Source: a bacterium
GTDB taxonomy: Bacteria > Patescibacteriota > Gracilibacteria > Peribacterales > Peribacteraceae
DNA: 64,000 nucleotides
Assembly (NCBI GenBank): GCA_029558515.1
Contig: JAKQEM010000032.1
Span: forward strand, 3,987-67,986
Reading direction: 5' to 3'
In this document: positions 18,535-60,003 of the stretch, in pieces
Position numbering within the stretch: the first letter of the stretch is position 1
How the letters are laid out: each line of letters opens with the position of its first letter
Made by a program: the position numbers and the translations under genes
Notes under the pieces: generated by a model
Told to the model about the DNA's origin: nothing
The model's input: only the letters and a program-made list of their open reading frames with translations
Database searches by the model: none

Positions 18535-21339
18535 ATGCCTACCACGAAGCCAACCGGCCTCCCGCAAGATCCTCCCGAGAAGGGCGGTCGTGCGGAATCG
18601 AAGCAGGATGAACCCTCGCGCAACATCGGTCTTGTGCGCGAAGCAATGCGGCTTGGATTCGATTTGTCCTCCCTTCGCTTGGAGCAATTCGCTCCCGAGG
18701 AACCGGTTTCATCGAACGGGTCGCCGCTTGGCACGGAGGAGATCAGGCAGAGAGCGCTTGAAACGCTCCACCTTCTCGATGAATACAATCGCGTGAAATT
18801 GGAGCCGAGCAAGGCGTCCCAAGGGCAGGTCGATGACATGCTCGGTGATGTCGAAAGTCTGGATGATTTCATCGCCGCTCTCGACACCAGTAAAGAGAAA
18901 TCCAAGGCAAAAACAGAGGAACCCAAAGCAAGATTCCGAAGGGAAGAACTGGCCGGAAAAATCAGGGAACTTCTTTCCGAGCCGCAGGTGTATCAATTCC
19001 TGCAGCAATCACTTGCGAAGGAAGCCGAGCGCTTCAAAGCGGTACAGCCACTTCTTTCGCGGCTGCACAAGCTGCGCCAAGTACAGGACATCGCTTTCGA
19101 GCGCATCCATACGCTCTCCCTTGAGAGCAAACGCAGACATGGCAAGATCGTAGGATCCGTGCAGACAACTATCGAAAAACTCTCGCGCCTCAGCAAAGAG
19201 GCGGAGGAAGAGGAGCAACGCTTGGAGGAAGAAGCGACCCCCTTGGAAAAAGGATGGATCGCTTCGCAGCGCCTCCTCGAATATAAACAACAGATGAAGA
19301 CGGATCGCTTCGTCATGGCACCGAGCCGCCGCGCGATTCTCGATGAGATGATCGCCAAGCTCGGCAGCAAAGGACGGGTGCTTCTGCTCGGTTCCAACGG
19401 AACGGGAAAGACGGAGCTTGCGGCGAAGGCGTTGAAGCTCGTTTCCAACGGGTATCACCTCGTGCCATGGCAGGAGGCCACGACCGGACAGGACATCTTC
19501 GGGCGGCAAGAAATCCGCCGCCAGAACGGCCATGTAGAGAGCGGGCTGCGCCCTGGCCCCATGACCCGCGCCATCGAAGCAAAAGAAGGAGAACCGGCAG
19601 GCGTGCTCCATGATGAGTTAAACCTCGGGAGCCTCCGCACGATTTACCTCCTGAAGAAGCTCTGGAACAGCCGTCCCGGGCAGGAGGTGGATGTGCCCGT
19701 ACTCGATGAAAAGCGCAAATTGCCCCTGAACTATGCGGAGGTCTATACGGCAAACCCGAAGGATGAGCGCACGAGCAACCGCGAAGAGTTCGATGCGGGC
19801 ATCACGCGCGTTCTCGGCGGCATGAACGTGCCGTTTCTGAAACAGGATGAGCAGGAGCAGATCATTCTCGCCAAGCTCATCGACGAGAACGGTGTCCTGC
19901 ATCTTTCGAGGAGCGAAGCGCAGACGATCCGCGAGCTTGTAGCCAGCGCTGTCATGACGCAGCAATGCTTCGACCGTGCGTTCGCGGATTTGGGCGATGA
20001 AGCCCTCGGAGAAATCAAGAACATGACGGGCATTTCCGATTTGCGCCTCACAAAGAAATTTCTCGACCCGGGACGGCTCATGGAAATGTTCGATACCTAC
20101 GAGCAAAAGAGAGCTGAAGGCATGAGCGTCGCGGAATATCTTTCAGCAGAATTGAAGAAATTCCTCGCAGAGTTTGAGGTGGACGAAGAGAGAAACATCG
20201 CGCTCGCCATTCTGAAATTAAAGGGTGTTCTTACACCGGACAGCACGGCGACGGATCCCCATGTGCAAGTGATGACGAAGCCCGGCGAGAAGCCGTTCCT
20301 CCTCCCGTCCGAACTCGCATTCATCGTGTCTTGCGATGATGGGTTGGACGACTCCGACGTGGAATTCGATCAAAAGGAAGTGAGCGTTGAGGAAGTGATT
20401 GCCTCAGACGGGGCGGAGGTGCTGGATCTTCTCAATGCGCGAAATCCCACCGTCATTCAGGCTACCAAAATCAAGCGCATGCTGGAGATGCAGGGAACGT
20501 CGCAACAGGCCATTGACCGCGCCCGCCGGACGATGCTCGAAAAGTGCGGCGAGGGGCACTTCTTCGGCCCAGAAGAGCTGATGAAGGCATTCCCCGGACT
20601 CAAGCTCGCCCCGAAAGATCTGCCGCCCCTCCCTCCAGACGACGAGATCGAGCGCCATGCTGCCTTGGGACACACGCTCCGTCTACGCGTGAGCACCGCG
20701 CCAGACGGATCGAAGCTCACGATCCCGAAGATGCGCGAACTGCTGCAGGAAAGCTTCGCTCGTAACAACGACGGAGAGGTGCTCTATAGCCCCAATTCCG
20801 ACTGGAAGCTCGCCTCGACGTTCTACACGGACGAAGTGCCGGAGATGGCATGGGCGTTCACGTCCGATGAAGTCCTACCAGACTCCACAAGTAAGAACCA
20901 TCTGCAGCAGACTCAAGTACTTGCCGACTATGCTCGTTCCACGCTCTTCAAGAAAGGTCAGCTGCCGCGCGAGTACCAGGAGGCCATACGGGAGTTTGAA
21001 TCTCAGAAAGATGAGATCCAGCAATTGATGGGCAGCGACTGGAAGGCGGCAGCAGGACGTCTCGCGGGACTCAAGATCAACAAGCTTATGCGAGGCAACC
21101 CCGCAGAGACTGTGCAGGATCTCCTTGTTACTTTCCAAAACAATGATCCCAAGAGCCGAAAGCGCCTGCTTGAAAAAATGTGGACATGGACGGCAACCCA
21201 AAGCTCGGACGGCTGCCTCGTCTACGTCGGTAACTTCGGTCCGGGCGGCGTGAGCGTCGGCTTCTGGCGCCCGGACGACTCGGATGACGGTCTCGGGGTC
21301 GTCCTCGCTCGGAAGTTCCCTCGAACCTTGCGTACTTGA
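18535..21339 (+). CDS. DGR target 1: MoxR/AAA_5-type ATPase fused to a C-terminal variable (C-type-lectin-fold-like) domain
   Basis: Coiled coil; Walker A GSNGTGKT, Walker B VLHDELN, YTANP; the 3' end contains VR1. Confidence 0.88.
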   Translation: MPTTKPTGLPQDPPEKGGRAESKQDEPSRNIGLVREAMRLGFDLSSLRLEQFAPEEPVSSNGSPLGTEEIRQRALETLHLLDEYNRVKLEPSKASQGQVDDMLGDVESLDDFIAALDTSKEKSKAKTEEPKARFRREELAGKIRELLSEPQVYQFLQQSLAKEAERFKAVQPLLSRLHKLRQVQDIAFERIHTLSLESKRRHGKIVGSVQTTIEKLSRLSKEAEEEEQRLEEEATPLEKGWIASQRLLEYKQQMKTDRFVMAPSRRAILDEMIAKLGSKGRVLLLGSNGTGKTELAAKALKLVSNGYHLVPWQEATTGQDIFGRQEIRRQNGHVESGLRPGPMTRAIEAKEGEPAGVLHDELNLGSLRTIYLLKKLWNSRPGQEVDVPVLDEKRKLPLNYAEVYTANPKDERTSNREEFDAGITRVLGGMNVPFLKQDEQEQIILAKLIDENGVLHLSRSEAQTIRELVASAVMTQQCFDRAFADLGDEALGEIKNMTGISDLRLTKKFLDPGRLMEMFDTYEQKRAEGMSVAEYLSAELKKFLAEFEVDEERNIALAILKLKGVLTPDSTATDPHVQVMTKPGEKPFLLPSELAFIVSCDDGLDDSDVEFDQKEVSVEEVIASDGAEVLDLLNARNPTVIQATKIKRMLEMQGTSQQAIDRARRTMLEKCGEGHFFGPEELMKAFPGLKLAPKDLPPLPPDDEIERHAALGHTLRLRVSTAPDGSKLTIPKMRELLQESFARNNDGEVLYSPNSDWKLASTFYTDEVPEMAWAFTSDEVLPDSTSKNHLQQTQVLADYARSTLFKKGQLPREYQEAIREFESQKDEIQQLMGSDWKAAAGRLAGLKINKLMRGNPAETVQDLLVTFQNNDPKSRKRLLEKMWTWTATQSSDGCLVYVGNFGPGGVSVGFWRPDDSDDGLGVVLARKFPRTLRT
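21202..21318 (+). repeat. DGR variable repeat VR1
   Basis: 117 nt ungapped match to the TR; 17 mismatches at TR adenines, 10 at non-A positions. Confidence 0.92.
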
Positions 21340-21420
21340 ATGCTTGATCTTCCTCGAATCCTTTTTCCTTGACGCATCCGCTACTGACGAATTTTCACCT
21401 CCTATAGTCCTTCACTCCCG

Positions 21421-22443
21421 ATGCCCCGCGAAGCTCTCCACTCGTTCATCCGGCAACTCCAAGAAAGTACCGCCTACAGGGATCACGTCGGCGTGCGCAC
21501 CGTCGTGGATGAGACCGTCCGCAGGATTGCCGCTTTGCCGGAAGAAGGTGCCGGAGCATTGCTCAGAGAAGAAATTCATACGCTTCGAGATCAGCTCATT
21601 CCGCTCTTGCAGGGAACGAAGGCTCCGAAGAGGAAGGAGAAAAAAGGAGAAGCAGTCAGTCCCAAGGACGCGGAAGCGATCATGGGCAAAGACCGTTTCT
21701 TTGGCATCGAGGCTGTCCGCAAAGCCTTTCCTGGTATCACGCTCAAACCCGAGCACATTCCCTCTATTCCATTTTCCAAAGAAGATCTTGAGCGAGCGAA
21801 GGAACTCGGAGACAGCCTACGTCTGCGCATAGATAAGGCGCCCGGCAAAGGGAAACTCAACATGCAGAAAATGCAGGAATTGCTGCAGCCGGTCTTCGAT
21901 CAGAGCGGCGAAGGGAAGGTGCTCTACGATACCGATTGGTACGAGAACGAGGACTTCTTCACCGAAGCGCCGGAACTCTGCTGGGTCCTTACGTCTGACG
22001 GCGTCATTCCCGATTCCGAGGACAAAGATTACCTCGAACAGACGGAGCATATCGCGGAGTACCTCCGTGACACCGTGTACCAAGGCAAGAAGCTGCCGCA
22101 GCAGTACGCCGAGGCGATCAAGGAACTGGACGCACAAAAGGATGATATTCGCCAACTTATTGATGACGATAATTGGGAGAAGGCGGCAAAGAGACTTGCT
22201 GATCTCACACTCAATAAACTTACGCGCCGCATCCCCGTCGAAGTGCTGTACGACATGCTTGTGTCATTCCAGAACGGCGGCAAGCGCCATCTGGACGACA
22301 TGTACGATTGGACGTGCGTCCGTAGCTCGGACGGCGGCCTCGTCGACGTCGGTGCCTTCGTTCCGGGCGGCGTGCACGTCGACCACTGGCGCCCGCGCAG
22401 CTCGAATGACGCTCTCGGGGTCGTCCTCGCTCGGAAGTTCTGA
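21421..22443 (+). CDS. DGR target 2: stand-alone paralogue of the target 1 C-terminal domain
   Basis: 340 aa; shares FFG.E...AFPG..L, LG..LRLR..., GxVLY, VxPDS..K..L.QT with target 1; ends in VR2. Confidence 0.88.
   Translation: MPREALHSFIRQLQESTAYRDHVGVRTVVDETVRRIAALPEEGAGALLREEIHTLRDQLIPLLQGTKAPKRKEKKGEAVSPKDAEAIMGKDRFFGIEAVRKAFPGITLKPEHIPSIPFSKEDLERAKELGDSLRLRIDKAPGKGKLNMQKMQELLQPVFDQSGEGKVLYDTDWYENEDFFTEAPELCWVLTSDGVIPDSEDKDYLEQTEHIAEYLRDTVYQGKKLPQQYAEAIKELDAQKDDIRQLIDDDNWEKAAKRLADLTLNKLTRRIPVEVLYDMLVSFQNGGKRHLDDMYDWTCVRSSDGGLVDVGAFVPGGVHVDHWRPRSSNDALGVVLARKF
22324..22440 (+). repeat. DGR variable repeat VR2
   Basis: 117 nt ungapped match to the TR; 17 mismatches at TR adenines, 11 at non-A positions. 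Confidence 0.92.
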
Positions 22444-22842
22444 GCCTTGCGACCTTGAAGGCTTGAGCCTGATCGAGTCCTTTTTCCTTGAAGCATCCGT
22501 TACAGGCGATTTTTGCACTGGATGCCACTGCAATTTGCATCATAGGATGCGATTGCGGCCCGTTCTTGCAGTCGGGGTTACGGCTCCGGCTCACGGTCCG
22601 CCTCATCTTTGCAGCCACTGAAGCGGTCAGCGTAGGTGGGAACCCGCCGGAATACCGTGTCTCCACGGAGCACAGTAGTGAGCGGGCTTAGATGCAGAAG
22701 GAACTTCTTGCTCATTCTCAGACTCGGTATCGTCCCGTTCTGCGGGACGGTTGCGGGCGAATCAAATTCAGGGGAAAGAGGCTATAGGCCGCAAGGCAGT
22801 AAACCTCGATCCCCGGTGTTCCGGACGGGAATGGGCAGCAAT

Positions 22843-22959
22843 AGCTCGGATGGCAACCTCGTCAACGTCGGCAACTTCGATCGTGACGGCGTGAACGTCA
22901 ACAACGATCAACCTGACAACTCGAATGGCAACCTCGGGGTCGTCCTCGCTCGGAACTTC
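22843..22959 (+). ncRNA. DGR template repeat (TR)
   Basis: Intergenic, AAC-rich copy of the VRs (agc tcg gat ggc aac ctc gtc aac ... cgg aac ttc) located between the targets and avd/RT. Confidence 0.9.
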
Positions 22960-22966
22960 CTTCATG

Positions 22967-23007
22967 GTAACCCAAGGGGCTCCCGTCTCAAGAGTCCCTT
23001 AGGTTAC
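22967..23007. other. Long hairpin 3' of the TR, overlapping the avd stop codon
   Basis: GTAACC-c-AAGGGG-CTC ... GAG-TCCCTT-a-GGTTAC. Confidence 0.6.
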
Positions 23008-23354
23008 GCATCGCGCGTCGACTTGATCCACCCGCCGAGCATGCGTCCGACTTCGTCAACCATCTCCTCGATTTGCGCATACTTCTTGAGATCGATTGCC
23101 TTCACATCCTTGGCGAGGCGCAGAAAAACGCGAAGGACGTTGAGCTTGAGGCTGACGCGTTCGAGCGGCTCCAACTTCTGCGGCTTGCGCATCTGGCTCG
23201 CGAGCAGAATCCCCTCGAGCACTTCGAGCATGAGAGCTTCGCAGCGGGGCCAGAGCGCGATGCGATCCTGCTTGGATACGGCAGCCCGCAGCTCATAGAG
23301 CTTCTTTGTCAGATCGTATGCCCGCTTGAAGATTGGAATATCGAGTTCTTCCAT
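23004..23354 (-). CDS. avd: DGR accessory variability determinant (Avd, four-helix bundle)
   Basis: 116 aa; IPIFKRAYDL...LRVFLRLA...EVGRMLGGWIK; located between TR and RT. Confidence 0.88.
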   Translation of the reverse strand: MEELDIPIFKRAYDLTKKLYELRAAVSKQDRIALWPRCEALMLEVLEGILLASQMRKPQKLEPLERVSLKLNVLRVFLRLAKDVKAIDLKKYAQIEEMVDEVGRMLGGWIKSTRDA

Positions 23355-23367
23355 GACGACATGAAAT

Positions 23368-24417
23368 ATGAAAGTGCACAAGCATATCTTCGACCGGCTC
23401 ATCACGCCAGAGCACCTGTTCCGTTCTTGGGAGGAATTCCGGAAGGGTAAGGGGTCGCGGAAAGACGTGCAGGAGTTCGAGTGGAAACTCGAGCAGAATA
23501 TTCTGTCTCTCAGCCGTGATTTACGAGACAGGACATACAGGCATGGTCCGTACTCGGCGTTCACCATATGCGATCCCAAGCAGCGTCGCATCCATAAGGC
23601 AACCGTTCATGACCGCGTTCTGCACCACGCCATATTCTCTCTGCTTAATCCCATCTTCGAGCCGACGTTTATAGCGCATTCTTTTTCTTGTCGTGCGGGA
23701 AAGGGAACGCATAAAGCCGTGACAGCACTCGAGAAGTGGTTGCGGCAAGTCAGTCGCAACTGTCGGTATCCCTGCTTCGCTTTGAAGTGTGACATTCACC
23801 AGTTTTTTGCTTCCGTCGATCACAAGATCCTTCTCTCTATCCTGAACCGGAAGGTGAAGGACGCGGATATCATGCGCTTGCTCACGGAAGTCGTGGGGAG
23901 TTTTAGCAGTACAGAATTGGAAAACGAGAGGCCAAGAGGAATCCCCATCGGCAATCTTACGTCGCAGCTCTTTGCGAATGTATATCTGAATGAGTTTGAT
24001 CAGTTCATGAAGCATTCGCTGCGCATCCGCCATTATATCCGTTACACCGATGACTTCGTGATCGTGGATACTGACAGAGACCGGCTCGAGGCGTTGATCC
24101 CGATCATAGGCAAATATCTCAGCGAAGAACTACGGCTGAACCTCCATCCTCGCAAAATCATCCTTCGTAAATTCGGTCAGGGCATCGATTTCCTCGGTTA
24201 TGTCATTCTCCCACACCATCGGGCATTGCGTACACGGACGAAACGGCGCATGTTCCGTAAGCTGAAGTCGCGGGTGGACAGTTTCAAGACGGGTGCGGGC
24301 AGTGAATCTTCGGTGGAATGTTCCCTTCAGTCCTATCTCGGAGTTCTCTCACATGCGAATGCTCTCTGCTTGAGCGATCAACTGCAGAATCAATGCTGGT
24401 TCTGGCTGCGGGACTGA
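23368..24417 (+). CDS. DGR reverse transcriptase
   Basis: PKQRRI...DRVLHHA, KCDIHQFFASVDH, GIPIGNLTSQ (DGR-type SQ), YIRYTDDF, GIDFLGY. Confidence 0.95.
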   Translation: MKVHKHIFDRLITPEHLFRSWEEFRKGKGSRKDVQEFEWKLEQNILSLSRDLRDRTYRHGPYSAFTICDPKQRRIHKATVHDRVLHHAIFSLLNPIFEPTFIAHSFSCRAGKGTHKAVTALEKWLRQVSRNCRYPCFALKCDIHQFFASVDHKILLSILNRKVKDADIMRLLTEVVGSFSSTELENERPRGIPIGNLTSQLFANVYLNEFDQFMKHSLRIRHYIRYTDDFVIVDTDRDRLEALIPIIGKYLSEELRLNLHPRKIILRKFGQGIDFLGYVILPHHRALRTRTKRRMFRKLKSRVDSFKTGAGSESSVECSLQSYLGVLSHANALCLSDQLQNQCWFWLRD

Positions 24418-31657: not shown

Positions 31658-32036
31658 GGAGAGAACGGCGACGAAGGATCGAAACAAGAGCGGAATAGAG
31701 CAACATGATGCCGCACGTCGAGTAGGCGAGCACGGAAGCAATGACGGCAAAATGGATGTTGCGTTCCTGATAGGCATACAGCACAAACATGCACAGCACG
31801 GCACCGAGACTGAAAATTTGGACTGTCCAGCGCGCGGCAGTGCCGCTTAGCGCATCATCACGCTCATCGGCAATCACCTCTCTGACGCGGCGGCGCAGGA
31901 AGAAAAGCACAAGAATCGCAACGATGATGGCAACAACGGGCCAGAAGTACTCCTGGCGCACAACGGACGATGAAACGAACGCAGCGAGCAGCATGACGAT
32001 GATGATGCGGGCAACGGTGTACTGCTTGAGAGACAT
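31650..32036 (-). CDS. DUF2178-like membrane protein
   Basis: 4 TM segments with a VIADERD motif; overlaps the XRE gene, a common pairing. Confidence 0.75.
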
Positions 32037-32214
32037 GGGAGATGGGGAAGATGCCCGTATGTTATATATTTCTAACACTACGGTCAAGAGCATTCGGGAG
32101 GGGCTCACAAATCAACGCCCATTTGGCAATGTACAATCTCTCGCGCCAGAAATTTGGCACCTTTTGGAGGGAGTCTGCGGGGCATAGGCACGGCAGAGTG
32201 CGTGCCATGCACAA

Positions 32215-32236
32215 GAAAAAAGCGACCGAAGCCGCT
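32215..32236 (-). terminator. Intrinsic terminator
   Basis: Minus strand AGCGGC-TTCG-GTCGCT followed by TTTTTT. Confidence 0.75.
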
Positions 32237-32266
32237 CTTTCCTTTGAGTTGGGAATGGAGAACTGC

Positions 32267-32305
32267 TTAGCAGCAGCCACCACAGCAACCGTCGCCACCG
32301 ATCAT
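32267..32305 (-). CDS. 12-aa Cys-rich micro-ORF MIGGDGCCGGCC
   Basis: Has its own promoter, a pyrimidine-rich leader and a terminator. Confidence 0.5.
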   Translation of the reverse strand: MIGGDGCCGGCC

Positions 32306-32334
32306 AGGAAAGGGAGAAAGGAAGTAGGATCGCA

Positions 32335-32387
32335 ATGATAGCAGATGCCCCTTCCCATGTCTAGCACTCTCAGAGGAAGAGTGAAAA
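32335..32387 (-). promoter_or_regulatory. sigma70 promoter overlapped by a CIRCE-like (HrcA) operator
   Basis: Minus strand TAGACA-N17-TATCAT with extended -10 TG; plus strand CTAGCACTC-N9-GAGTGAAAA at 32361-32387 (consensus TTAGCACTC-N9-GAGTGCTAA). Confidence 0.65.
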
Positions 32388-32448
32388 TTCTGTCTCATTC
32401 ACCCACCCGGCGGGAATGTGGCGCGTGGGGAGAGAGGGGTGAGGGAAA

Positions 32449-33276
32449 TCAGAAAGACTGCTTCCTCCCCAGTGCGTCGCGATGATACTGTCCGAATTCC
32501 GTCGTGCTGCGAACGGTTGCATTGTCCAGCACCGGCCCTTCCACGCATAACCGGATACCCGAAGGATCCACCGTGCAATTGCCGCACAGCCCGTAGCCGC
32601 ACTTCATGTACCGCTCGAAGGAAAGCTGCGCGGGGACGGCGTGCGCGTGCGCGAGATCGGAAACAGCCAGAAGCATGCGCTCGGGGCCGCAGGCGAGAAT
32701 AATGGTGGATGGTGAGTGGTGAGTGGTGAGGAACTGCGCAAGTACTTCAACGTTATATCCTGCGTGTCCCTCTGATCCGTCATCCGTGGCGATGTGGAGC
32801 GTCGTGCGTGGCAGTGCGGAGAGCTCCTCGATGTACAGCAAATGATCTTTGCTCCGCGCCCCCACGATGATATCGAGCGTGCAGCCGTCTTTCAGTGCTT
32901 CGTGCGCCGCAAAATACATGGGTGCCGCGCCGTACCCTCCCGCAACCAACATAAGATGCTGCTTCTTTTTCCATGTGTAGTGCGTTCCGAACGGCCCGCG
33001 CAAACCGATCAGATCGCCTTTTTTGCACTTCGCCAATTCCTTCGTCATATCCCCCACCGCAAAGAACGTCACACGCAGATGCTTCCCATCATCGAAGGCA
33101 ACGCTCATCGGAATCTCATCGACGCCCGGCAGCCACAGCATCACGAATTGTCCGGGCAACGCCCCCAGCGACCCGTCGAACGTGAACGTCTGCACCATAT
33201 CGGTCTCGCGTTTGGTTTCTAGGATCCGATACGTTTTGGGCAGCCGGGATTGGAGGGGAATGTTCTGCACAGGCAT
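32449..33276 (-). CDS. pyrK: Dihydroorotate dehydrogenase electron-transfer subunit
   Basis: PGQFVML, RGPFG, VAGGYGAAP, ACGPE, MKCGYGLCGNC...CVEGPV. Confidence 0.92.
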   Translation of the reverse strand: MPVQNIPLQSRLPKTYRILETKRETDMVQTFTFDGSLGALPGQFVMLWLPGVDEIPMSVAFDDGKHLRVTFFAVGDMTKELAKCKKGDLIGLRGPFGTHYTWKKKQHLMLVAGGYGAAPMYFAAHEALKDGCTLDIIVGARSKDHLLYIEELSALPRTTLHIATDDGSEGHAGYNVEVLAQFLTTHHSPSTIILACGPERMLLAVSDLAHAHAVPAQLSFERYMKCGYGLCGNCTVDPSGIRLCVEGPVLDNATVRSTTEFGQYHRDALGRKQSF

Positions 33277-33308
33277 AGAACGACAGAAGTATAGTGTGGA
33301 AACCAAGA

Positions 33309-33343
33309 AAATGATAAATGCAAAATGCTAAATGCTAAATGGT
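33309..33343. repeat. Heptamer tandem repeat (AAATGNW)x5, left arm of cassette 1
   Basis: AAATGAT AAATGCA AAATGCT AAATGCT AAATGGT. Confidence 0.75.
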
Positions 33344-33378
33344 ATGTTACAGAGCAGATCAGCCACCATACTGTGTGC

Positions 33379-33726
33379 ATGAATCCAATACGCGATCAAT
33401 CGTACACGTTCGCCATCCATATCGTACAATTCTGCACCAAACTGCAAGAGCAAAAGGAATATGTCCTCAGCAAACAATTATTACGCTCCGGCACGAGCAT
33501 AGGTGCAAATATCGAAGAGGCTCAAAAAGCCCAAACCAAGAAGGACTTTACATACAAGTGTTCTATCTCATTAAAAGAAGCTTACGAAAGCAGATATTGG
33601 CTGCGACTGCTTTGTGATAGCGGTATTGTTACCTCACACACTACAGCATCACTCCTTGAAGAAATCGACCAAATCATTCGAATCCTTTCTGCGATCGTCA
33701 AAACAGCAAGCACTCAGACGGAATGA
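33379..33726 (+). CDS. Four-helix-bundle protein (23S rRNA IVS-protein family), antisense within the pyr cluster
   Basis: LSKQLLRSGTSIGANIEEAQ...SLKEAYESRYWLRLL. Confidence 0.9.
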   Translation: MNPIRDQSYTFAIHIVQFCTKLQEQKEYVLSKQLLRSGTSIGANIEEAQKAQTKKDFTYKCSISLKEAYESRYWLRLLCDSGIVTSHTTASLLEEIDQIIRILSAIVKTASTQTE

Positions 33727-34708
33727 TCCTGTACCCAACATTGTATCTCTCAAATGACATTTTGCATTTCCCATTCTGCATTCGTCTATGCATGGAACCC
33801 GTCAATTCCGCAATGTCCTTCACTCCCTCAGCCTCACACCACTCCCTCATTTCATCGCAGACTTTCCGGAAGACATCCTGCCCCCGCGCCCACACCGCCG
33901 TGCCGATGCCGATGAGAGACGCACCCGCGAGCAGCAGTTCGATGGCATCCTCGCCCGTATGCACCCCGCCCGTCCCGATGATCGGCAGCTTCCCCTCCGT
34001 GATGGCATAGACGTCCGCGATGCACCGCACCGCGAGCGGCTTGATGGCAGGCCCCGAGATACCGCCGACTCTGTTCGCCAGAATCGGCATGCGGCTCTTC
34101 AGATCGATTGCCATGCCGGGGCCGGCGGTATTGATGACCGTGAAGCCGTCGGCACCCGCCTCGGCACAGGAACGAGCCACTTCCGCGATGGAGAGGGCAT
34201 TGGGAGAGAGTTTGATGAAAACGGGGGTCTTGCCGGACACCTGCTTCACGGCACGCGTGACCGATGCCGCATCCGCCGGACTGCAGGCGAAGGGCTTGCC
34301 GAATTCATCTTCCACGTTGGGGCAGCTGATGTTCACCTCCAGGAAATCGGGCTTCAGGGGCAGCAACGCTTCTGCGGTGAGCGCATAGTGTTCGACGGAT
34401 TCCGCAATGATATTGAGGATGAGGGGAACGGGTTGATCCGCCATGTACGACTCGATCTCCTGCCGCGCCTTCTCCGGCCCCGCATCCGGCACTCCGACGG
34501 CATTGAGCGTCCAGTGATCCGTCGAAATGATGGTGGGATTGCGGTGCCCCCGGTGCTCGTGCAGCCAGATCGACTTCGTCGTGATGGCACCCGCTCCGCC
34601 CACGGTCGCCACACGCCGCCACGAAGATGCGGTGATACCCAGAATGCCCGAAGCAAGGACGGTGGGGTTGGGGAAGGAGACGCCGAGGAGGGATTGAGTC
34701 AAATTCAC
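33698..34708 (-). CDS. pyrD: Dihydroorotate dehydrogenase (family 1B)
   Basis: LASGI, ITTKS, EVNISCPN, IKLSPN, GGISGPAIKP; GTG start at 34708; C-terminus runs through the repeat arm. Confidence 0.92.
   Translation of the reverse strand: MNLTQSLLGVSFPNPTVLASGILGITASSWRRVATVGGAGAITTKSIWLHEHRGHRNPTIISTDHWTLNAVGVPDAGPEKARQEIESYMADQPVPLILNIIAESVEHYALTAEALLPLKPDFLEVNISCPNVEDEFGKPFACSPADAASVTRAVKQVSGKTPVFIKLSPNALSIAEVARSCAEAGADGFTVINTAGPGMAIDLKSRMPILANRVGGISGPAIKPLAVRCIADVYAITEGKLPIIGTGGVHTGEDAIELLLAGASLIGIGTAVWARGQDVFRKVCDEMREWCEAEGVKDIAELTGSMHRRMQNGKCKMSFERYNVGYRIIPSECLLF
33758..33785. repeat. Heptamer tandem repeat (CATTYNN)x4, inverted right arm of cassette 1
   Basis: CATTTTG CATTTCC CATTCTG CATTCGT. 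Confidence 0.7.
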
Positions 34709-34710
34709 GA

Positions 34711-34742
34711 ATAACAGAATATCAGAGTAACAGAGTAACAGG
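34711..34742. repeat. Octamer tandem repeat (RTAACAGA-like)x4, left arm of cassette 2
   Basis: ATAACAGA ATATCAGA GTAACAGA GTAACAGG. Confidence 0.75.
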
Positions 34743-34870
34743 GAGTATTTGTTCCATGAGGAAAAAGAACGTCGATATATCGCTCGTACAAGCGCAATTT
34801 GAAACAATCACATCATAAAGAAATTCCCAAATCTCTTTTCCCTATAGCACATCAGATGGACAATTCACCA

Positions 34871-35236
34871 ATGCAACATTTTACAGATCTCAAAGTATGG
34901 ACCATCGGCATGGATCTTGCCTGTGAAATTTACAAACTCACACGAAAACTGCCCAAGGAAGAACTCTATGGCATCACATCGCAACTACGAAGAAGTTCAA
35001 CCAGCATTCTCGCAAATATTGCAGAGGGATTTGGTCGCTACACTTTTCGAGACAAAGCTGCAAAATACACCATCTCAAGAGGTGAATGTTCGGAAGTCGA
35101 AGCATTTCTTTTGATTATCGTCGCAATCGGATACGTATCCGAAAAGGACATTCAACAAGCGCGAGCTCGCATCCGACATGAACGCCAAATGCTTTCCGGT
35201 TTGATTGCCGCATGCAAACGCCACGGAGACGGCTGA
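34871..35236 (+). CDS. Four-helix-bundle protein (23S rRNA IVS-protein family), antisense within the pyr cluster
   Basis: FTDLKVW...LPKEELYGITSQLRRSSTSILANIAEGFGR...ISRGECSEV. Confidence 0.9.
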   Translation: MQHFTDLKVWTIGMDLACEIYKLTRKLPKEELYGITSQLRRSSTSILANIAEGFGRYTFRDKAAKYTISRGECSEVEAFLLIIVAIGYVSEKDIQQARARIRHERQMLSGLIAACKRHGDG

Positions 35237-35245
35237 TCCTGTTCC

Positions 35246-35303
35246 TCCGTTATTCCGTTACTCCCTTATTCCGTTACTCCGTTACTCCGTTACTCCTCGT
35301 TAC
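35246..35303. repeat. Octamer tandem repeat (TCCGTTAY)x6+, inverted right arm of cassette 2
   Basis: TCCGTTAT TCCGTTAC TCCCTTAT TCCGTTAC TCCGTTAC TCCGTTAC; reverse complement GTAACGGA matches the left arm GTAACAGA. Confidence 0.8.
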
Positions 35304-35307
35304 GCCT

Positions 35308-36993
35308 TTATTCCCCAACAATCGCCTGCATGAACGCAGCGAACAGCGGATGCGGCTTGTGCGGTCTGCTCTTGAACTCCGGGTGGAACTGGCAGCCGAG
35401 CATGAAGGGATGATCCTTCACCTCCACGATCTCCATGAGATGCGTCTGCGGGTTTTCCCCGGAGAAGATGAGTCCCTTCTTTTCCAATCGATCTTTGAAC
35501 GCATTGTTGAATTCGTAGCGATGGCGATGACGCTCGGAAATCGTATCGCTTCGATAGGCATCGTGTGCCTTCGTCCGCCGACGTAACGCACAATCGTACG
35601 CCCCCAACCGCAGCGTCCCGCCCTTCTCCCGTCCCTTATGCTGCCCGGGGAGAAAATGTACGACGTACTTGGATGGAGCGAGCTTCTCCTCTTCATCGAA
35701 TTCTTCACTCGTCAACGCATCATCCTTCAGCACGGCGCGCGCAAACTCGATCGCCAGAATCTGCGCCCCCAGACACAAACCCAAATACGGCACTTTTTCC
35801 GTCCGCGCATAGTGCGCCGCAGCGATTTTTCCCTCGATCCCCCGGTTGCCGAATCCTCCGGGCACCACCAAGCCGTCCGCGCTCTTGAGCACCGCCCACG
35901 TTTCCTCATCATTCTTCTCCAACTTCTCGCTGTCGACCCAGAGCAACTCCGCCCTGGCTCCGTGAAAAACAGCGGCGGATTTGACCGATTCGATGACGCT
36001 CAAATAGGCATCCTCCAAGTGAGTGTACTTGCCGACGAGCGCGACCTTGACCGGACGTTCCGCCTTTGCGTTGCGCTCGCGACCCTGCTCCCATTCGCTC
36101 ATATCCGGCTGCAGATTTCCCAACCCCAGCTTCCGTCCGATGATGGCGGCAATGTCGTACTGTTGCAGGGAGAGGGGCACGTCGTAGATGGAGTGCAGTG
36201 TCAGCGAGGGAATGACCGCCTCACGCGAGACGTCGCAAAACCTGCTGATTTTATCCAGCAGTACATCGGGAATCTTGTGATCCGCGCGCGCCAGAATCAT
36301 ATCCGGCTGCACGCCGATGCGCCGGAGTTCCCGCACGGAGAGCTGCGTGGGTTTGGTCTTCAGTTCTTTGCTCCCCTTCAAGTACGGCAGCAGCGTGAGA
36401 TGCACGTGGAACAGCCGTTCGGGTCCCAGGTCCGCTCGCATCTGTCGCAGAGCTTCCAAGAAAGGTTCCCCCTCGATGTCCCCGACCGTGCCGCCGATCT
36501 CCACCAACATGATATCCGCGTTTGATTTGAACGCCGCGGACTGAATGGACTCCTTGATGGCGTCGGTAATGTGCGGCACCACCTGAATGGTCCCGCCGAG
36601 AAACTCGCCTTTGCGTTCGCGCGCCAGCACATGCGTGTAGATCTTCCCGGTCGTCATCGTGCTCAACTTGCTCATGGGCTCGTCGATGAACCGTTCATAG
36701 TGTCCCAAATCCAAATCCGTCTCAGCGCCGTCATCCGTCACAAAGACTTCGCCGTGCTGAAAGGGACTCATCGTCCCGGGATCCACATTCAAGTACGGGT
36801 CGAGCTTCTGCACGAACACCTTGAGCCCGCACGCCTTCAAAATCGCCCCGATGGACGCCGCGGCGATGCCTTTCCCCAAACTGGAGCAGACGCCTCCCGT
36901 CACCACGATGAACTTCGCATGGCTCGAAAGGCCGCCGTTGCTCCCTCCGGTGGAAGGATGTGGCTGCGACGGCGTGTTCCTGGATGCAATCAT
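35308..36993 (-). CDS. pyrG: CTP synthase
   Basis: TGGVCSSLGKG, DPYLNVDPGTMSPFQHGEV, KTKPTQ, GLCLG, RHRHRYE, QFHPEF; start uncertain (36993 or 37038). Confidence 0.96.
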   Translation of the reverse strand: MIASRNTPSQPHPSTGGSNGGLSSHAKFIVVTGGVCSSLGKGIAAASIGAILKACGLKVFVQKLDPYLNVDPGTMSPFQHGEVFVTDDGAETDLDLGHYERFIDEPMSKLSTMTTGKIYTHVLARERKGEFLGGTIQVVPHITDAIKESIQSAAFKSNADIMLVEIGGTVGDIEGEPFLEALRQMRADLGPERLFHVHLTLLPYLKGSKELKTKPTQLSVRELRRIGVQPDMILARADHKIPDVLLDKISRFCDVSREAVIPSLTLHSIYDVPLSLQQYDIAAIIGRKLGLGNLQPDMSEWEQGRERNAKAERPVKVALVGKYTHLEDAYLSVIESVKSAAVFHGARAELLWVDSEKLEKNDEETWAVLKSADGLVVPGGFGNRGIEGKIAAAHYARTEKVPYLGLCLGAQILAIEFARAVLKDDALTSEEFDEEEKLAPSKYVVHFLPGQHKGREKGGTLRLGAYDCALRRRTKAHDAYRSDTISERHRHRYEFNNAFKDRLEKKGLIFSGENPQTHLMEIVEVKDHPFMLGCQFHPEFKSRPHKPHPLFAAFMQAIVGE

Positions 36994-37138
36994 ACGAAGA
37001 AAACCGGGCAAGTTCCGGGGGAAGCCCGTGAGCATCATACTCGTTGAAATGGCAAAGACAAGAAAGAATATAAGAGAATATATCTACTATTGAGCAACTC
37101 GCTCATTACTCTATACTGCATGACTTCCCATTCTTCCC

Positions 37139-38533
37139 ATGTCTGGACTCATTGAAAAAATCGAAGTGATCATTACGGACCCTCGTCTTACGCAAATTGC
37201 CAATATTGATCTGGAAGCACTGACAAAAAGAAACAGTGATCCACTTTCACCATTGCAAAAACAATTCCGCACCTGTTGTCTTGGCATCGTGGGAGCAAAA
37301 GACGATCCACAAAATACGGAAGAGCTTCCAGGGCACTTCCCCGATTTCCAAGTCGTGCTGGAAAGGCATCGCCAATCCATTAAGCTGATCCTTCTGCACA
37401 CTCCATCCGACGCATTCCCTAAAGGGAAAATTACGGAAGGAAAACGCAGACAGTTGGGCGCAGCCATTCGCGATATGCTCTTTGCTCAAACACATCTCAA
37501 GTATGAAGATCGCACAACAATAATACATCAAATGCTGCGTGATGCAGATGCCCTGTCTCCAACGTATGCCATCATCGATAACACCCGAATACAACTCGAT
37601 CGAATCACCTGTTTCGGCGGACATCGTGTGGGACAAGACGAATACTTTTTCTCAAAGAATCTTGGCAAAGAACTCGGGCTTGCATACATGGAAGTAATCA
37701 CCGGAGGGGGCCCCGGCATCATGCGTGGCATCATGCGGGGAAATGTCAAAGGTCTGCGTATGCAAGACACGGACGGCAAGCAAATTGGAATGACATGTCC
37801 TGAAATCATTACGGCTGAACCTCCCAATAGTTGGCTAAACAGATTAATTATTCTTCCGGATATCGAAAGCAGGTTGGAAGCATTCCTGCGAACGCAAAAC
37901 GGAATCATTTTTCTCCCAGGTGGCATCGGCACATTGGAAGAATTTATGACCGTTCTCGCCGTAAAAACTGATGCGAGTAACAGCGAACAAGAACTGCCGT
38001 TGCTTCTGGCAGGCCCAAGAGAATCCATGAATTGGATTGTCGCAGTAGAGGAATTTATGCAAACGGTGTTTGGGAAAGATGTGAAAGATCTCTATAACAC
38101 CATTACGGGAGACCCGGAAGCAATCACAAATTGGATGAGAGAAAAAATGCCTGCCGTGCACCAAGCAAGAAATTTAAAAAATGACGATCGTCTGTGGAAT
38201 AACAGTTTGCATATACCGAAGGCACTGCACATTCCATTCGAGCCGACCCACAAAAATGTCAGTGAGTTACATTTGGAAAGCGGACAATCTCTCTCCACGC
38301 TCGCATTGGAGATACGAAACATGCTAAAGGCCATTGTCTTTGCGCAAGTAGTAGAAGGCGGTTCGACATACATACAAGAGCATGGAAAATACATCGTAAC
38401 CGGTGAACGAAAAATTCTTCAAGCCATTGATACACTATTCAAAAAGTTCGCATCCGACGGAAGAATGTTTATGGGACAAACGGAGCCTTGCTACACACTG
38501 CAGTCATCAGAAATCAATCACCCCGCCCGATAA
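37139..38533 (+). CDS. ppnN: PpnN/YgdH-like nucleotide 5'-monophosphate nucleosidase (LOG family)
   Basis: CFGGH, TGGGPGIM, IITAEPPN, PDIESRLEAF, PGGIGTLEE; low GC. Confidence 0.75.
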   Translation: MSGLIEKIEVIITDPRLTQIANIDLEALTKRNSDPLSPLQKQFRTCCLGIVGAKDDPQNTEELPGHFPDFQVVLERHRQSIKLILLHTPSDAFPKGKITEGKRRQLGAAIRDMLFAQTHLKYEDRTTIIHQMLRDADALSPTYAIIDNTRIQLDRITCFGGHRVGQDEYFFSKNLGKELGLAYMEVITGGGPGIMRGIMRGNVKGLRMQDTDGKQIGMTCPEIITAEPPNSWLNRLIILPDIESRLEAFLRTQNGIIFLPGGIGTLEEFMTVLAVKTDASNSEQELPLLLAGPRESMNWIVAVEEFMQTVFGKDVKDLYNTITGDPEAITNWMREKMPAVHQARNLKNDDRLWNNSLHIPKALHIPFEPTHKNVSELHLESGQSLSTLALEIRNMLKAIVFAQVVEGGSTYIQEHGKYIVTGERKILQAIDTLFKKFASDGRMFMGQTEPCYTLQSSEINHPAR

Positions 38534-49885: not shown

Positions 49886-50721
49886 ATGGTACCGATTTCC
49901 AGTGACGAATCCCTAATCCCCAATCCCCAATCCCCAATCCCCTCGTCTCCGCCATCGTCCTCAATACCCGTGAAGCCGCGCGCACGGTGCGCTGCGTGCA
50001 GGCGCTTCTGATGCAAACCATCGCGCAGGAGCTGGAAATCATCATCGTCGACAATCACTCGCAGGATGATTCCATCGGCATTCTCCGCAATCGTTTCGGA
50101 CAGTATCCGCACATCCGCATCGTCGAAAATGAACGCAATCGAGGATTCGGCCAGGGCAATGCGGCGGGCATTCGTCATGCGACGGGCACGTACCTGCTGA
50201 TCATCAACCCTGATGTCACGCTGCCACACAACGGCCTGGAACAGATGACGCACGCGATGGAGGCAGACCCGTCCATCGGCTTGCTCGGTCCGCAACTGCG
50301 GTTTGAAGACGGCACGATCCGCCGCTCCTTCCGATCCTTCCCCCGGCTGTCTGACGTGTTCATCAAGCGGACCATTCTGCGTTTTTTCCTCCGGAAACGG
50401 CTGGATCACTATCTAAGCACATCCATCGACCCCTCGCAGGTGCAGGATGTGGACTGGCTTGCGGGCGGCTGCATCCTGATGCAACGAACATTTTTCAACG
50501 AACTGGGCGGTTTCGACCGAAGATTCTTCCTGTTTTTTGAGGATACGGACCTCTGCAGGCGCATCTGGAACGCAGGAAAGCGCGTCGTTTACTATCCCAC
50601 GGTACGGGCCGCGGACGGCAAACAGCGCCTCAGCGAGGGCGGATGTTTCTCGATCTTCACCAAAAAAACCGTGCGCATCCATCTCTGCAGCGCAGTGCGG
50701 TATTTTTGGAAGTGGAGATAG
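49886..50721 (+). CDS. Glycosyltransferase family 2 (rhamnosyltransferase-like); ATG 49886 is out of frame as assembled
   Basis: LVSAIVLN, IIIVDNHSQD, NRGFGQGN, INPD, FDRRFFLFFEDTDLC. Confidence 0.85.
49908..49942. repeat. Heptamer tract (AATCCCY)x5 inside the 5' end of the glycosyltransferase gene
   Basis: AATCCCT followed by 4x AATCCCC. Confidence 0.9.
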
Positions 50722-56025: not shown

Positions 56026-56064
56026 AGGGAGTAGGTTGTAGGGTGTAGGGAGTAGGGAGTAGGA
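56026..56064. repeat. Heptamer tandem repeat (GGGAGTA-like)
   Basis: ggggagta ggttgta gggtgta gggagta gggagta. Confidence 0.7.
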
Positions 56065-57523: not shown

Positions 57524-57961
57524 ATGAACCAAATGGTTCCCTGGCGAAGGAAGTCCGTCGTCCCGCGGCCCTTCGACGAACTGTTCTGGGACCCCTTCAT
57601 GGCCTTCGCAGATATGGACAGACGCTCGAGTGCGTTTGTGCCTGCCACCGACATCGCCGAGACCGAGAAGGACATCATCGTCACGGCGGATGCCCCCGGC
57701 TACGATCCCAAGCAGATCGAAGTGAGCTTGGAGAACGGACTGCTCACCATCAGCGGAAAAATGCAGGAAGAAGCGGAGGAGAAGGGCAAGCGTTGGCGCC
57801 GCCGCGAGACGGCATCGGGGAACTTCCTGGTGCAGTTCTCCATGCCGCAGGGCGTGGATGAGGAGAAAGTGACGTGTCGCACGAAGAACGGCCGCCTCAC
57901 GGTGACGATCCCCAAATCCGCCAAATCCCAGAAACGCACGCTGCAGGTGGAGGAGGAGTGA
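57524..57961 (+). CDS. Hsp20 small heat-shock protein
   Basis: PATDIAE, DAPG, GLLTISG, KNGRLTVTIPK. Confidence 0.92.
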   Translation: MNQMVPWRRKSVVPRPFDELFWDPFMAFADMDRRSSAFVPATDIAETEKDIIVTADAPGYDPKQIEVSLENGLLTISGKMQEEAEEKGKRWRRRETASGNFLVQFSMPQGVDEEKVTCRTKNGRLTVTIPKSAKSQKRTLQVEEE

Positions 57962-57965
57962 GGAG

Positions 57966-57993
57966 TGGTATTGGGTATGGGGTATGGGGTGTC
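57966..57993. repeat. Heptamer tandem repeat (GGGTATG-like)
   Basis: ggtattg ggtatgg ggtatgg ggtgtc between convergent hsp20 and proS. Confidence 0.6.
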
Positions 57994-59893: not shown

Positions 59894-60003
59894 GGGATTG
59901 GGGATTGGAGATTGGGAATTTGGGATTTGTTGTTTGTACCTCGTTGTTCGTTATTTCGTTCCTTCATTCGTCCTACTCCCTACCACCTACTCCCTACCAC
60001 CTC
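59894..60003. repeat. Three adjacent heptamer tracts (GGGATTG; TTGTTCG; CCTACTC/CCTACCA)
   Basis: Seen directly in the intergenic sequence. Confidence 0.75.

Follow-up and report, generated by a model that had tools for sequence, protein, structure and literature searches.

Four-helix-bundle genes between inverted tandem repeat arms form cassettes at operon junctions in a Peribacteraceae genome and in other bacteria

The window analysed here, 64,000 nt of contig JAKQEM010000032.1 (assembly GCA_029558515.1) from a member of the Peribacteraceae, contains a pyr operon with a small cassette at each of two gene junctions, pyrG/pyrD and pyrD/pyrK. Each cassette consists of a gene for a four-helix-bundle (4HB) protein of family PF05635 and of two flanking arms, which are arrays of a short, tandemly repeated unit and are inverted with respect to each other. 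The same anatomy is found around a majority of the 4HB genes surveyed in other bacteria and is specific to them; the arms are complementary within a cassette though the unit differs between cassettes, and the occupancy of a given junction varies among related genomes. We read the cassettes as selfish elements without a transposase, of the type of the intervening sequences (IVSs) of ribosomal RNA, whose arms would pair into an RNA stem on the host transcript, a probable target of RNase III cleavage, and whose protein probably recognises its own repeats. This reading, which leans on analogy with the rRNA IVSs, has in our estimate a probability of about 0.5.

Results

The two cassettes of the pyr operon

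Cassette 1 (477 nt) lies between pyrD and a pyrK-like gene. Its left arm (33309..33341) consists of about five AAATGNW units (Tandem Repeats Finder, TRF, period 7, 4.7 copies) and its right arm (33758..33785) of four CATTYNN units inverted to those on the left, which are too degenerate for TRF and were located by pattern search (inverted score 15). Between the two lies 4HB-1, a plus-strand gene (33379..33726) for a protein of 115 aa (p1; PF05635/TIGR02436, Pfam E 1.7e-26), the start of which was taken from the profile alignment. Four successive CATTYNN units occur in the 64 kb only in the two arms of this cassette (33758-33783 on the plus strand, and the left arm on the opposite strand), and in none of 100 shuffled sequences.

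Cassette 2 (606 nt) lies between pyrG and pyrD. The left arm, four GARTAACA units at 34709..34741 (TRF period 8, 4.1 copies), directly adjoins the pyrD start and forms the inverted pairs I1-I5 with the right arm. An AT-rich spacer of 129 nt (34742..34870, plus strand, GC 0.36) separates it from 4HB-2 (34871..35236, plus strand; p2, 121 aa, PF05635/TIGR02436, Pfam E 4.5e-34), whose start at MQHF is backed by an identical 121-aa database protein. The right arm comprises seven to eight TCCGTTAY units at 35241..35314 (35241-35296 in TRF, with period 8 and 7.0 copies, and pattern search), of which the last, degenerate one (35298-35314, repeat family D2) overlaps the pyrG stop codon.

The surrounding genes all lie on the minus strand: pyrG, for CTP synthase, upstream of cassette 2 (35308..37038; Pfam CTP_synth_N, E 2.7e-117), pyrD (33698..34708, from a GTG start at 34708 to a stop at 33698; Pfam DHO_dh, E 2.2e-67), and, downstream of cassette 1, the pyrK-like gene for the dihydroorotate dehydrogenase electron-transfer subunit (32449..33276, with an ATG at 33276; Pfam DHODB_Fe-S_bind and NAD_binding_1), the product of which is 64-71% identical to PyrK of four related loci, L007, L011, L013 and L018. 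Both 4HB genes are thus antisense to the operon, as an earlier note on this DNA had claimed. That note had also called the 4HB genes poor in GC, which holds (0.36-0.46 within the cassettes against 0.60-0.66 in the pyr genes), and its copy counts are roughly borne out for both arms of cassette 1 (five and four units) and for the left arm of cassette 2 (four) but not for the right arm of cassette 2, where we find seven to eight units in place of six. The 4HB gene is the sole ORF of each cassette, the open reading frame (ORF) listing contains no transposase gene in either, and inspection of the window sequence, by eye only, showed no direct target-site duplications at the arm borders. Neither tblastn nor a profile search found a third armed 4HB gene in the window, the latter returning only an armless protein, the Avd of a diversity-generating retroelement (DGR) considered below, and no Rfam family matches 32000-37500 at E up to 1.

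The pyrD ORF overruns its conserved end (near 33790) by about 30 codons, passing through the cassette 1 right arm and on into the 3' end of 4HB-1, read in antisense; PyrD of L007 terminates a few codons beyond the conserved MH. In the window pyrD has lost its ancestral stop, and its roughly 30 unrelated C-terminal codons (33698-33790) come from the inserted cassette 1.

A scan of the region for promoters gave four promoter-like sites, which is not above the 2.1 (sd 1.5) expected from shuffles, and a scan for terminators gave one terminator-like site against 2.8 expected. The spacer at 34742..34870 is, we infer, a possible promoter of the antisense 4HB-2 gene, and the corresponding left arm-to-gene distance is 128 nt in the L007 orthologue of cassette 2; the promoter scan called no promoter-like sites inside it. 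Two sigma-70-like matches, included in a regional total that does not exceed that of shuffles, lie on the minus strand at 33288-33338, inside the left arm of cassette 1 and facing pyrK.

Both proteins score well with the two family models, p1 and p2 reaching 93 and 117.3 bits with Pfam PF05635 (cut-off 33.8) and 105.4 and 112.1 bits with TIGR02436 (cut-off 24), and are only about 30% identical to each other. The closest named relatives of 4HB-2 belong to Candidatus Peribacteraceae/Peregrinibacteria. The closest entries in the PDB are 2RLD for 4HB-1 (E 7.6e-26) and 2GSC (XCC0516) for 4HB-2 (E 5.2e-17), each with five chains deposited, and a PF05635 protein known from the literature on the Coxiella IVS is described as a pentameric toroid of four-helix bundles (PMC4990558). 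The polar motif of the family, Q..R...S...N..E, is present, and Q38, S45, N49 and E52 are invariant in an alignment (A1) that includes both window proteins; PMC3936711 gives the family motif as GxxRxxxSxxxNxxE. With the Avd model NF033474, for which the cut-off is 80 bits, 4HB-1 scores 25.5 bits and 4HB-2 has no match, and the PADLOC defence-system models match neither of the two nor the Avd of the window. The family is very large: a profile search (E up to 0.001) returned 46,373 clusters at 50% identity.

Arms around 4HB genes in other bacteria

The survey covers 86 loci and the window, 87 sources together. Six loci (L003 among them) are from plasmids, chosen from 37 records, mostly of Nostoc, Calothrix and other cyanobacteria, that a tblastn search with 4HB-2 matched; the others (L007-L086) are the best 80 of 581 confirmed among more than 600 stretches matched when profile A1 (16 sequences) was scanned against species-representative genomes. 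The taxa include Peribacteria, Saccharibacteria and other members of the candidate phyla radiation (CPR), Bacteroidota, Omnitrophota, Acidobacteriota, Planctomycetes and Myxococcales, among others, as well as the cyanobacterial plasmids. A profile search of all ORFs in these sources yielded 100 family members, with more than one in 11 loci and in the window; 93 are evaluable, and seven with flanks shorter than 200 nt or a protein shorter than 100 aa were left out.

Inverted arms, defined as an ungapped inverted match between the flanks with a score of at least 12, surround 60 of the 93 4HB genes and 3 of 218 control ORFs, these being ORFs outside the family, 90 aa or longer, that share the same DNA and lie more than 400 nt from any 4HB gene (Fisher 4e-36). 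The three control matches are a GIY-YIG ORF, which has a non-tandem inverted repeat and is the best of them, a TrmB-like ORF and a PaaX/Cas2-like ORF. The earlier note had named beforehand the outcomes that would have told against it, 4HB genes elsewhere being armless or arms surrounding arbitrary genes just as often, and the comparison gave neither. We note that in Chryseobacterium (L074, 4640-5160) a 107-aa GIY-YIG ORF is bracketed by a non-tandem inverted repeat (TCCTGAAAGGATCT-like) and may represent another type of small cassette at a gene junction.

Tandem arrays called by TRF accompany 79 of the 93 genes on at least one side and 49 on both, and are missing from both sides of 14; zones of 220 nt next to 4HB genes contain 3.39 arrays per kb and the remaining DNA 0.229, a 15-fold difference. 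Among 149 arm arrays the period is 7 in 98, 6 in 24, 8 in 23 and 9 in 4, with a median of 4.5 copies (interquartile range 4.0-5.2) and a median length of 32 nt. The arms are set close to the gene, the right one beginning a median of 7.5 nt past the stop codon and the left one ending a median of 33.5 nt before the start. They also have a polarity: on the sense strand of the 4HB gene purines predominate in the upstream arm of 53 cassettes and pyrimidines in that of three, with four ties, and by symmetry the 5' arm is therefore purine-rich on either strand.

In five of the six plasmid loci inverted tandem arrays of 6- to 8-mers stand on both sides of the gene. The sixth, L003 (1300-2100 and 2546-2722, from a Pseudanabaena plasmid), has its 4HB gene between cas6 and cas4 with direct arrays of about 14 AAAAGCT and about 10 AAAAGCC units; additional, inverted arrays of an AAAAGCT-type unit lie nearby, one of them upstream of the 4HB gene.

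In 88 of the 93 evaluable cases the 4HB ORF is poorer in GC than the DNA outside its arms (mean difference -0.076). Both neighbours could be called by a longest-ORF rule for 91 cassettes, of which 70 stand between co-oriented genes, and the span from neighbour to neighbour has a median of 504 nt. The contexts are unrelated, with pyr, cas, secretion, conjugation and partition genes represented in the examined plasmid loci and the window. No rRNA gene was found in the 86 loci or the window at Rfam gathering thresholds, which together with the 46,373 clusters makes the rRNA-borne members a minority niche of the family.

Antisense orientation, which the earlier note had taken as characteristic, was rejected as a defining trait: among the 70 cassettes between co-oriented neighbours 62 lie on the neighbours' strand and only 8 are antisense. 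It is a feature of the Peribacteria pyr locus and not of the class.

The repeat unit follows the protein

Across the 60 armed cassettes, protein similarity correlates with the share of common 6-mers in the arms (Spearman rho 0.238), a value reached in 0 of 2000 permutations. Host labels were typed from record titles, and pairs involving unlabelled records were dropped. Arm overlap between similar proteins is nearly as high when the hosts belong to different taxa (mean 0.169, 80 pairs) as when they belong to the same taxon (0.178, 109 pairs), and dissimilar proteins in the same taxon have a mean overlap of 0.030 (146 pairs). The repeat unit thus tracks protein similarity rather than host taxon, and the claim, first made for the two window proteins, that each has a repeat unit of its own holds for them and generalises across loci.

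Individual cases illustrate the point. A TTAAGG/TTGAGG hexamer type is common to Chryseobacterium, Balneolaceae and a metagenome-assembled genome (MAG) of Myxococcales, and a GTAACTAG type to records from Omnitrophota, Planctomycetales and Woesebacteria. All seven p1-like cassettes with arms have A-rich units of the AAAT/TAAA type. Conversely, the six pairs of cassettes that share a locus, the window's two among them, have an arm 6-mer sharing of only 0-0.13. Since the two arms of each cassette are complementary though the units differ between cassettes, the pattern amounts to covariation of the arms.

Occupied and empty pyr junctions in relatives

The pyr operon was compared in four fetched loci. 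In L007 only 3 nt separate the pyrD stop from the pyrK ATG and cassette 1 is absent, and at pyrG/pyrD stands a cassette 2 orthologue (60% identity), both arms of which are built of GTAACAGA units. L011 has an empty pyrD/pyrK junction of 40 nt and a 4HB cassette beside pyrD, which three ABC-transporter genes separate from pyrG; on the pyrG side stands an inverted pair without a gene, its AGAATAAT unit being that of the local 4HB cassette. In L013 the pyrD/pyrK junction is occupied by a p2-like 4HB gene with GAATACT units rather than by a p1-like one, and no 4HB gene is present at pyrG/pyrD; there, at 4360-4590, a GTCATCCTGAGC-like motif recurs several times and in both orientations, which is a different small repeat element. 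L018 has a compact pyrD/pyrK junction that is empty of cassettes, where a short run of a GGGCAGW-like unit is discernible by eye, and its pyrD-pyrG interval contains a truncated p2-like gene, a gene for a 597-aa membrane protein, and a p1-like cassette that adjoins pyrG, lies on the pyr strand and has AAATGAC arms.

Junction occupancy therefore varies among relatives, and pyrD/pyrK is taken by two different types of cassette. In this comparison the insertion of a cassette is the derived state at the pyr junctions. The proposal that the cassettes are mobile and target operon junctions is backed by the empty and differently occupied pyr junctions, by the 504-nt span and by the presence of similar gene-plus-arm sets across phyla.

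Pairing of the arms in RNA

In minimum-energy folds of the minus-strand RNA, which corresponds to the pyr mRNA, the arms of each cassette pair with each other. The arm-arm duplex is more stable in the pyr sense than in the 4HB sense, with -32.7 against -25.9 kcal/mol for cassette 1 and -48.4 against -32.9 kcal/mol for cassette 2, and duplexes with shuffled partners reach about -14 to -22 kcal/mol (pyr-sense means -17.9 for cassette 1 and -22.4 for cassette 2). Every left unit of cassette 2 has an A where the complement of every right unit has a G, and this difference leads to G-U pairs in the pyr mRNA and to A-C mismatches on the other strand. Folds, duplex energies and the A/G difference agree in this respect with the earlier suggestion that the arms pair in the pyr mRNA, with G-U pairs in cassette 2, and in the predicted folds the paired arms loop the 4HB gene out of the host transcript, from which it may be excised. 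Whole-cassette folds have modest z-scores, -0.89 in cassette 1 and -2.70 in cassette 2. Among the surveyed cassettes, transition mismatches between arms are biased to G-U on the strand antisense to the 4HB gene (70 versus 41 sites).

Arrays without the gene

At least five arrays in the window have no 4HB gene, all at gene junctions. These are an AATCCCC array of five units (49908-49942, TRF), an AGGGAGT array (56026-56063, TRF), GGAGTGA/GGTATGG arrays (57949-57990, the GGTATGG part at 57967-57990), and a GGGATTG array (59894-59927) separated by a 51-nt spacer from a CCTACCA array (59979-60002). The arrays at 49908 and 59894 are mutually inverted at a distance of 10 kb, as are those at 56026 and 59979 at a distance of 3.9 kb. 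In L048, from a Peribacteria relative, the arms of a 4HB gene are of the GGGATTG type, and the 4HB genes that match the solo arrays of the window may lie outside the window.

In the region 49886-49990 the AATCCCC array stands just upstream of a gene for a family-2 glycosyltransferase. The Pfam match of the listed ORF begins at profile position 15, so that the true start is to be sought further upstream, either within the array or ahead of it. The ATG at 49886 does not share the frame of the gene, and as we read the sequence a change in heptamer copy number would restore the frame; the start of the glycosyltransferase could thus be phase-variable via the length of the array.

The 87 sources contain 113 arrays outside the arm zones. 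A total of 106 belong to loci that have arm arrays, and 27 of these have 25% or more of their 6-mers in common with the local 4HB arms; for the arms of other loci the figure is 3.3%. Adjacent arrays form 28 pairs, about 14 of which read as inverted pairs with a spacer of 10-80 nt, that is, as cassettes without the gene. Arrays are therefore not exclusive to 4HB genes, either in the window or elsewhere.

Discussion

The designation of the window cassettes as IVS-like, made in the earlier note, is apt in several respects. The IVS of Coxiella measures 428-444 nt, contains a PF05635 ORF, has terminal inverted repeats that form a 28-bp stem cut by RNase III, and is lower in GC than the genome; the authors mention an old suggestion that the function of the ORF is in mobility (PMC4990558). 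Insertions in CPR rRNA likewise carry a PF05635 domain, termed functionally uncharacterized (PMC11270868). The window cassettes share with the rRNA IVSs of Coxiella, Leptospira and CPR bacteria the PF05635 ('S23p') gene, the size (477 and 606 nt against 428-444), a stem of about 30 bp, the low GC content and the lack of a transposase, and both kinds of insertion are tolerated at places where a cut RNA may stay in pieces (PMC4990558, PMC11270868). They differ in being placed at stop/start junctions of a protein-coding operon and not in a helix of 16S or 23S rRNA, and in having arms built from a short unit that is peculiar to the cassette and repeated in tandem; cutting by RNase III is here attributed by analogy. 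A further difference concerns orientation: the 4HB genes of the window run against the host transcript, whereas the account of the Coxiella IVS (PMC4990558) draws the ORF as part of the IVS RNA and does not contain the word antisense; the earlier statement that the family is encoded antisense within rRNA IVSs was accordingly not confirmed.

The IVS-type reading may be put as follows. A cassette would be a small selfish element like the ORF-bearing IVSs of rRNA, seated at a stop/start junction of an mRNA operon and bounded by inverted tandem arrays of about 4 to 5 copies (about 32 nt) of a 6- to 8-base unit of its own. In the host transcript the arms would pair into a stem of about 30 bp, looping out the 4HB gene, and RNase III would cut this stem as it does in rRNA IVSs. 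The cut would be harmless only where the RNA may remain in pieces, between cistrons or in surface helices of rRNA. The 4HB protein, a relative of Avd whose solved relatives are pentameric, would recognise its own repeat units and serve the upkeep or spread of the cassette; RNA cleavage, this binding and the mode by which a cassette moves are the parts that we infer. The pentameric state of the relatives, the role of Avd in working with nucleic acid and the median of 4.5 units per arm together make for an attractive idea, that a pentamer would read about five units of its own repeat.

Several observations weigh against this reading. Of the 93 4HB genes 33 are below the inverted-arm threshold and 14 have no TRF array at all, and the arrays around the 4HB gene of L003 are direct rather than inverted. 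Solo arrays are numerous (113), so that it could be the arrays that are primary, with the gene as their passenger. The DNA examined showed no recombinase, no target duplication and no other sign of a mechanism of movement, and the taxon labels, being drawn from the record titles of MAGs, may be imprecise. As to pairing in RNA, the fold of cassette 1 has a z-score of just -0.89, and a general strand asymmetry was tried and rejected, since duplexes of the 200-nt flanks favour the sense strand in 31 cases and the antisense strand in 29, from which it follows that the pyr-sense advantage seen in the window is no family rule. The wobble bias is weak (28 versus 14 cassettes, p 0.044) and is found irrespective of host orientation, which a host-mRNA model does not predict. 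Finally, strict purine polarity is not needed for a stem and may point to a constraint at the level of DNA or protein.

The alternative that survives best, though we consider it unlikely, is a module in the service of the host, with arrays that set the stability or translation of the neighbouring cistrons and a 4HB protein domesticated as an RNA-binding regulator or chaperone, protein and repeat co-evolving in place and nothing moving. Arms that adjoin the pyrG stop and the pyrD start suit such a module, in that their pairing would join stop and start, as do the gene-less pairs and solo arrays at other junctions, which often carry the unit of the local 4HB gene (27/106 versus 3.3%), and the 62 of 70 cassettes that are co-oriented with their operon; heptamer arrays have moreover been reported between aligned ORFs, at conserved, stable loci that are mostly transcribed (PMC4692102). 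A host function is harder to reconcile with relatives that manage with empty, tight junctions, such as the 3 nt between pyrD stop and pyrK ATG in L007, with the occupation of one junction by unrelated types of cassette in different genomes and with the occurrence of one gene-plus-arm type in different phyla. Nor does it sit well with a GC content below that of the host in 88 of 93 cases, with contexts as unrelated as pyr, cas, secretion, conjugation and partition genes, or with an insertion that displaced the pyrD stop and added about 30 unrelated codons.

Doubtful, in our view, is an element that moves as DNA and in trans, the arrays acting as folded single-stranded or cruciform sites for an enzyme encoded elsewhere (of the HUH/RAYT kind, another recombinase, or a reverse transcriptase (RT) with an Avd-like protein) and the RNA stem being incidental. 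This would accommodate the polarity of the arms, with the purine-rich strand entering the cassette in the 5' to 3' direction 53 times as against 3, which a stem alone does not need, and the gene-less pairs, which look like non-autonomous copies. The 4HB proteins are homologous to Avd, a pentameric, positively charged barrel that works with nucleic acid and RT and is required by the DGR reverse transcriptase (bioRxiv 10.1101/2023.10.23.563531), and a complete DGR with its RT lies 10 kb away in the window. On the other hand, the 86 loci examined showed no association of the cassettes with a recombinase or an RT, though no formal test of this was made, no target-site duplications were seen, and the bias among arm transition mismatches (70 versus 41 sites) is not predicted by a pure DNA duplex. 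As to Avd, the cassette proteins belong to the same fold superfamily, and 4HB-1 weakly matches the Avd model, but 4HB-1 at 25.5 bits and 4HB-2 with no match are below its equivalog cut-off of 80, neither gene lies beside an RT or a pair of template and variable repeats, and the DGR's own Avd has no arms.

The DGR (18535-24417) is of interest in its own right. It comprises a candidate template repeat (22796-22959), the RT gene (23368-24417) and two variable repeats at the 3' ends of ORFs, 21155-21318 in ORF 18535-21339 and 22277-22440 in ORF 21421-22443, which differ from the template mainly at its adenines. The Avd gene (23004-23354, minus strand) scores 80.3 bits with NF033474, against the cut-off of 80, and is divergent from the RT gene across a gap of 13 nt, an unusual arrangement. 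The left half of the window (92-31000), to which the DGR belongs, resembles a mobile or defence island, with an ApeA-like HEPN protein, a ResIII helicase accompanied by DNA methylases, a ParB-methylase fusion, two serine recombinases and an AAA_5 protein.

That the arrays are ordinary slippage-prone intergenic repeats, whose presence around 4HB genes is functionless, is very improbable, for although heptamer arrays are over-represented in many bacterial intergenic regions (PMC4692102) and at least five in the window lack a 4HB gene, slippage predicts neither the 15-fold enrichment beside 4HB genes nor inverted complementarity in 60/93 against 3/218, and neither the consistent polarity (53 versus 3) nor a unit that follows the protein across phyla.

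The arrangement recalls the REPIN and RAYT systems, in which a single small gene stands between inverted cognate repeats (repetitive extragenic palindromes, REPs), hairpins without the gene are dispersed, and the repeat type follows the protein clade; RAYTs, however, are HUH-type enzymes and their repeats single palindromes, whereas the 4HB proteins have no known catalytic fold and their arms are tandem. Short tandemly repeated repetitive (STRR) sequences were defined in cyanobacteria as a class of intergenic heptamer arrays. Of the window arms, those of cassette 1 are intergenic 7-base tandem arrays of several units, as in the STRR class, and those of cassette 2 have a period of 8. GGGAATC/GGGGAYT repeats have been described from Xanthomonas and Nostoc by Rehm et al. 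(2015), with 70-75 convergent inverted pairs per Xanthomonas genome; the arrays typically have about four units, lie between co-oriented genes and are often transcribed, and they were explained by G-quadruplexes, their function being given as unknown (PMC4692102). The window's GGGATTG/AATCCCC arrays are tandem 7-mers of this type, and the arms differ in bracketing one gene family, in varying with that family and in being in many cases not G-rich. We rejected G-quadruplexes as a general explanation, many units, such as AAATGCT, GAATACT and AGTAATT, having no G-runs. The terms 'helix bundle' and 'S23' do not occur in the main text of Rehm et al. (PMC4692102). Our literature search, which covered few subscription journals, so that an earlier description elsewhere is possible, turned up no report that connects PF05635, S23p or four-helix-bundle proteins with tandem or heptamer repeats, and the family-wide arm signature of 4HB genes appears to be unreported.

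The domain has also been noticed near CRISPR systems. Zhang and Ye found 18 '23S_rRNA_IVP' genes inside cas loci, one example being located between cmr3 and cmr2, and proposed that the two are functionally linked (PMC3936711), and a later survey lists the domain among associations of the adaptation module (PMC10910872). The L003 gene, between cas6 and cas4 and with AAAAGCT/AAAAGCC arrays, is of this kind. These reports read the association as a functional CRISPR link, whereas the cassette model takes it as a case of insertion into operon junctions generally; the present data advise caution before a 4HB domain inside cas or other operons is taken for a sign of functional linkage.

A wider and distinctly tentative proposal is that PF05635 genes with their cognate arms constitute a very large class of transposase-free mobile cassettes that crosses phyla and is the source of intergenic heptamer arrays, including the STRR sequences, the GGGAATC arrays of Xanthomonas and the solo arrays of the window. 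Such a class would explain the rRNA IVS ORFs and the apparent CRISPR association, and a pentamer that reads about five units might, by analogy with Avd, recruit an RT or another host enzyme to copy the excised stem-loop RNA into new junctions.

The role of the ORF in rRNA IVSs has been a puzzle since the 1990s (PMC4990558). The data presented here tie this puzzle to two others, the hundreds of intergenic heptamer arrays and the purpose of the huge 4HB family, and they do so through a gene that lies in the loop of a hairpin of its own repeats, a repeat that follows the protein across phyla, and the same hairpins without the gene. For the organisms themselves, the pyr junctions show that CPR genomes can accommodate insertions of this kind although their biosynthetic operons are tightly coupled.

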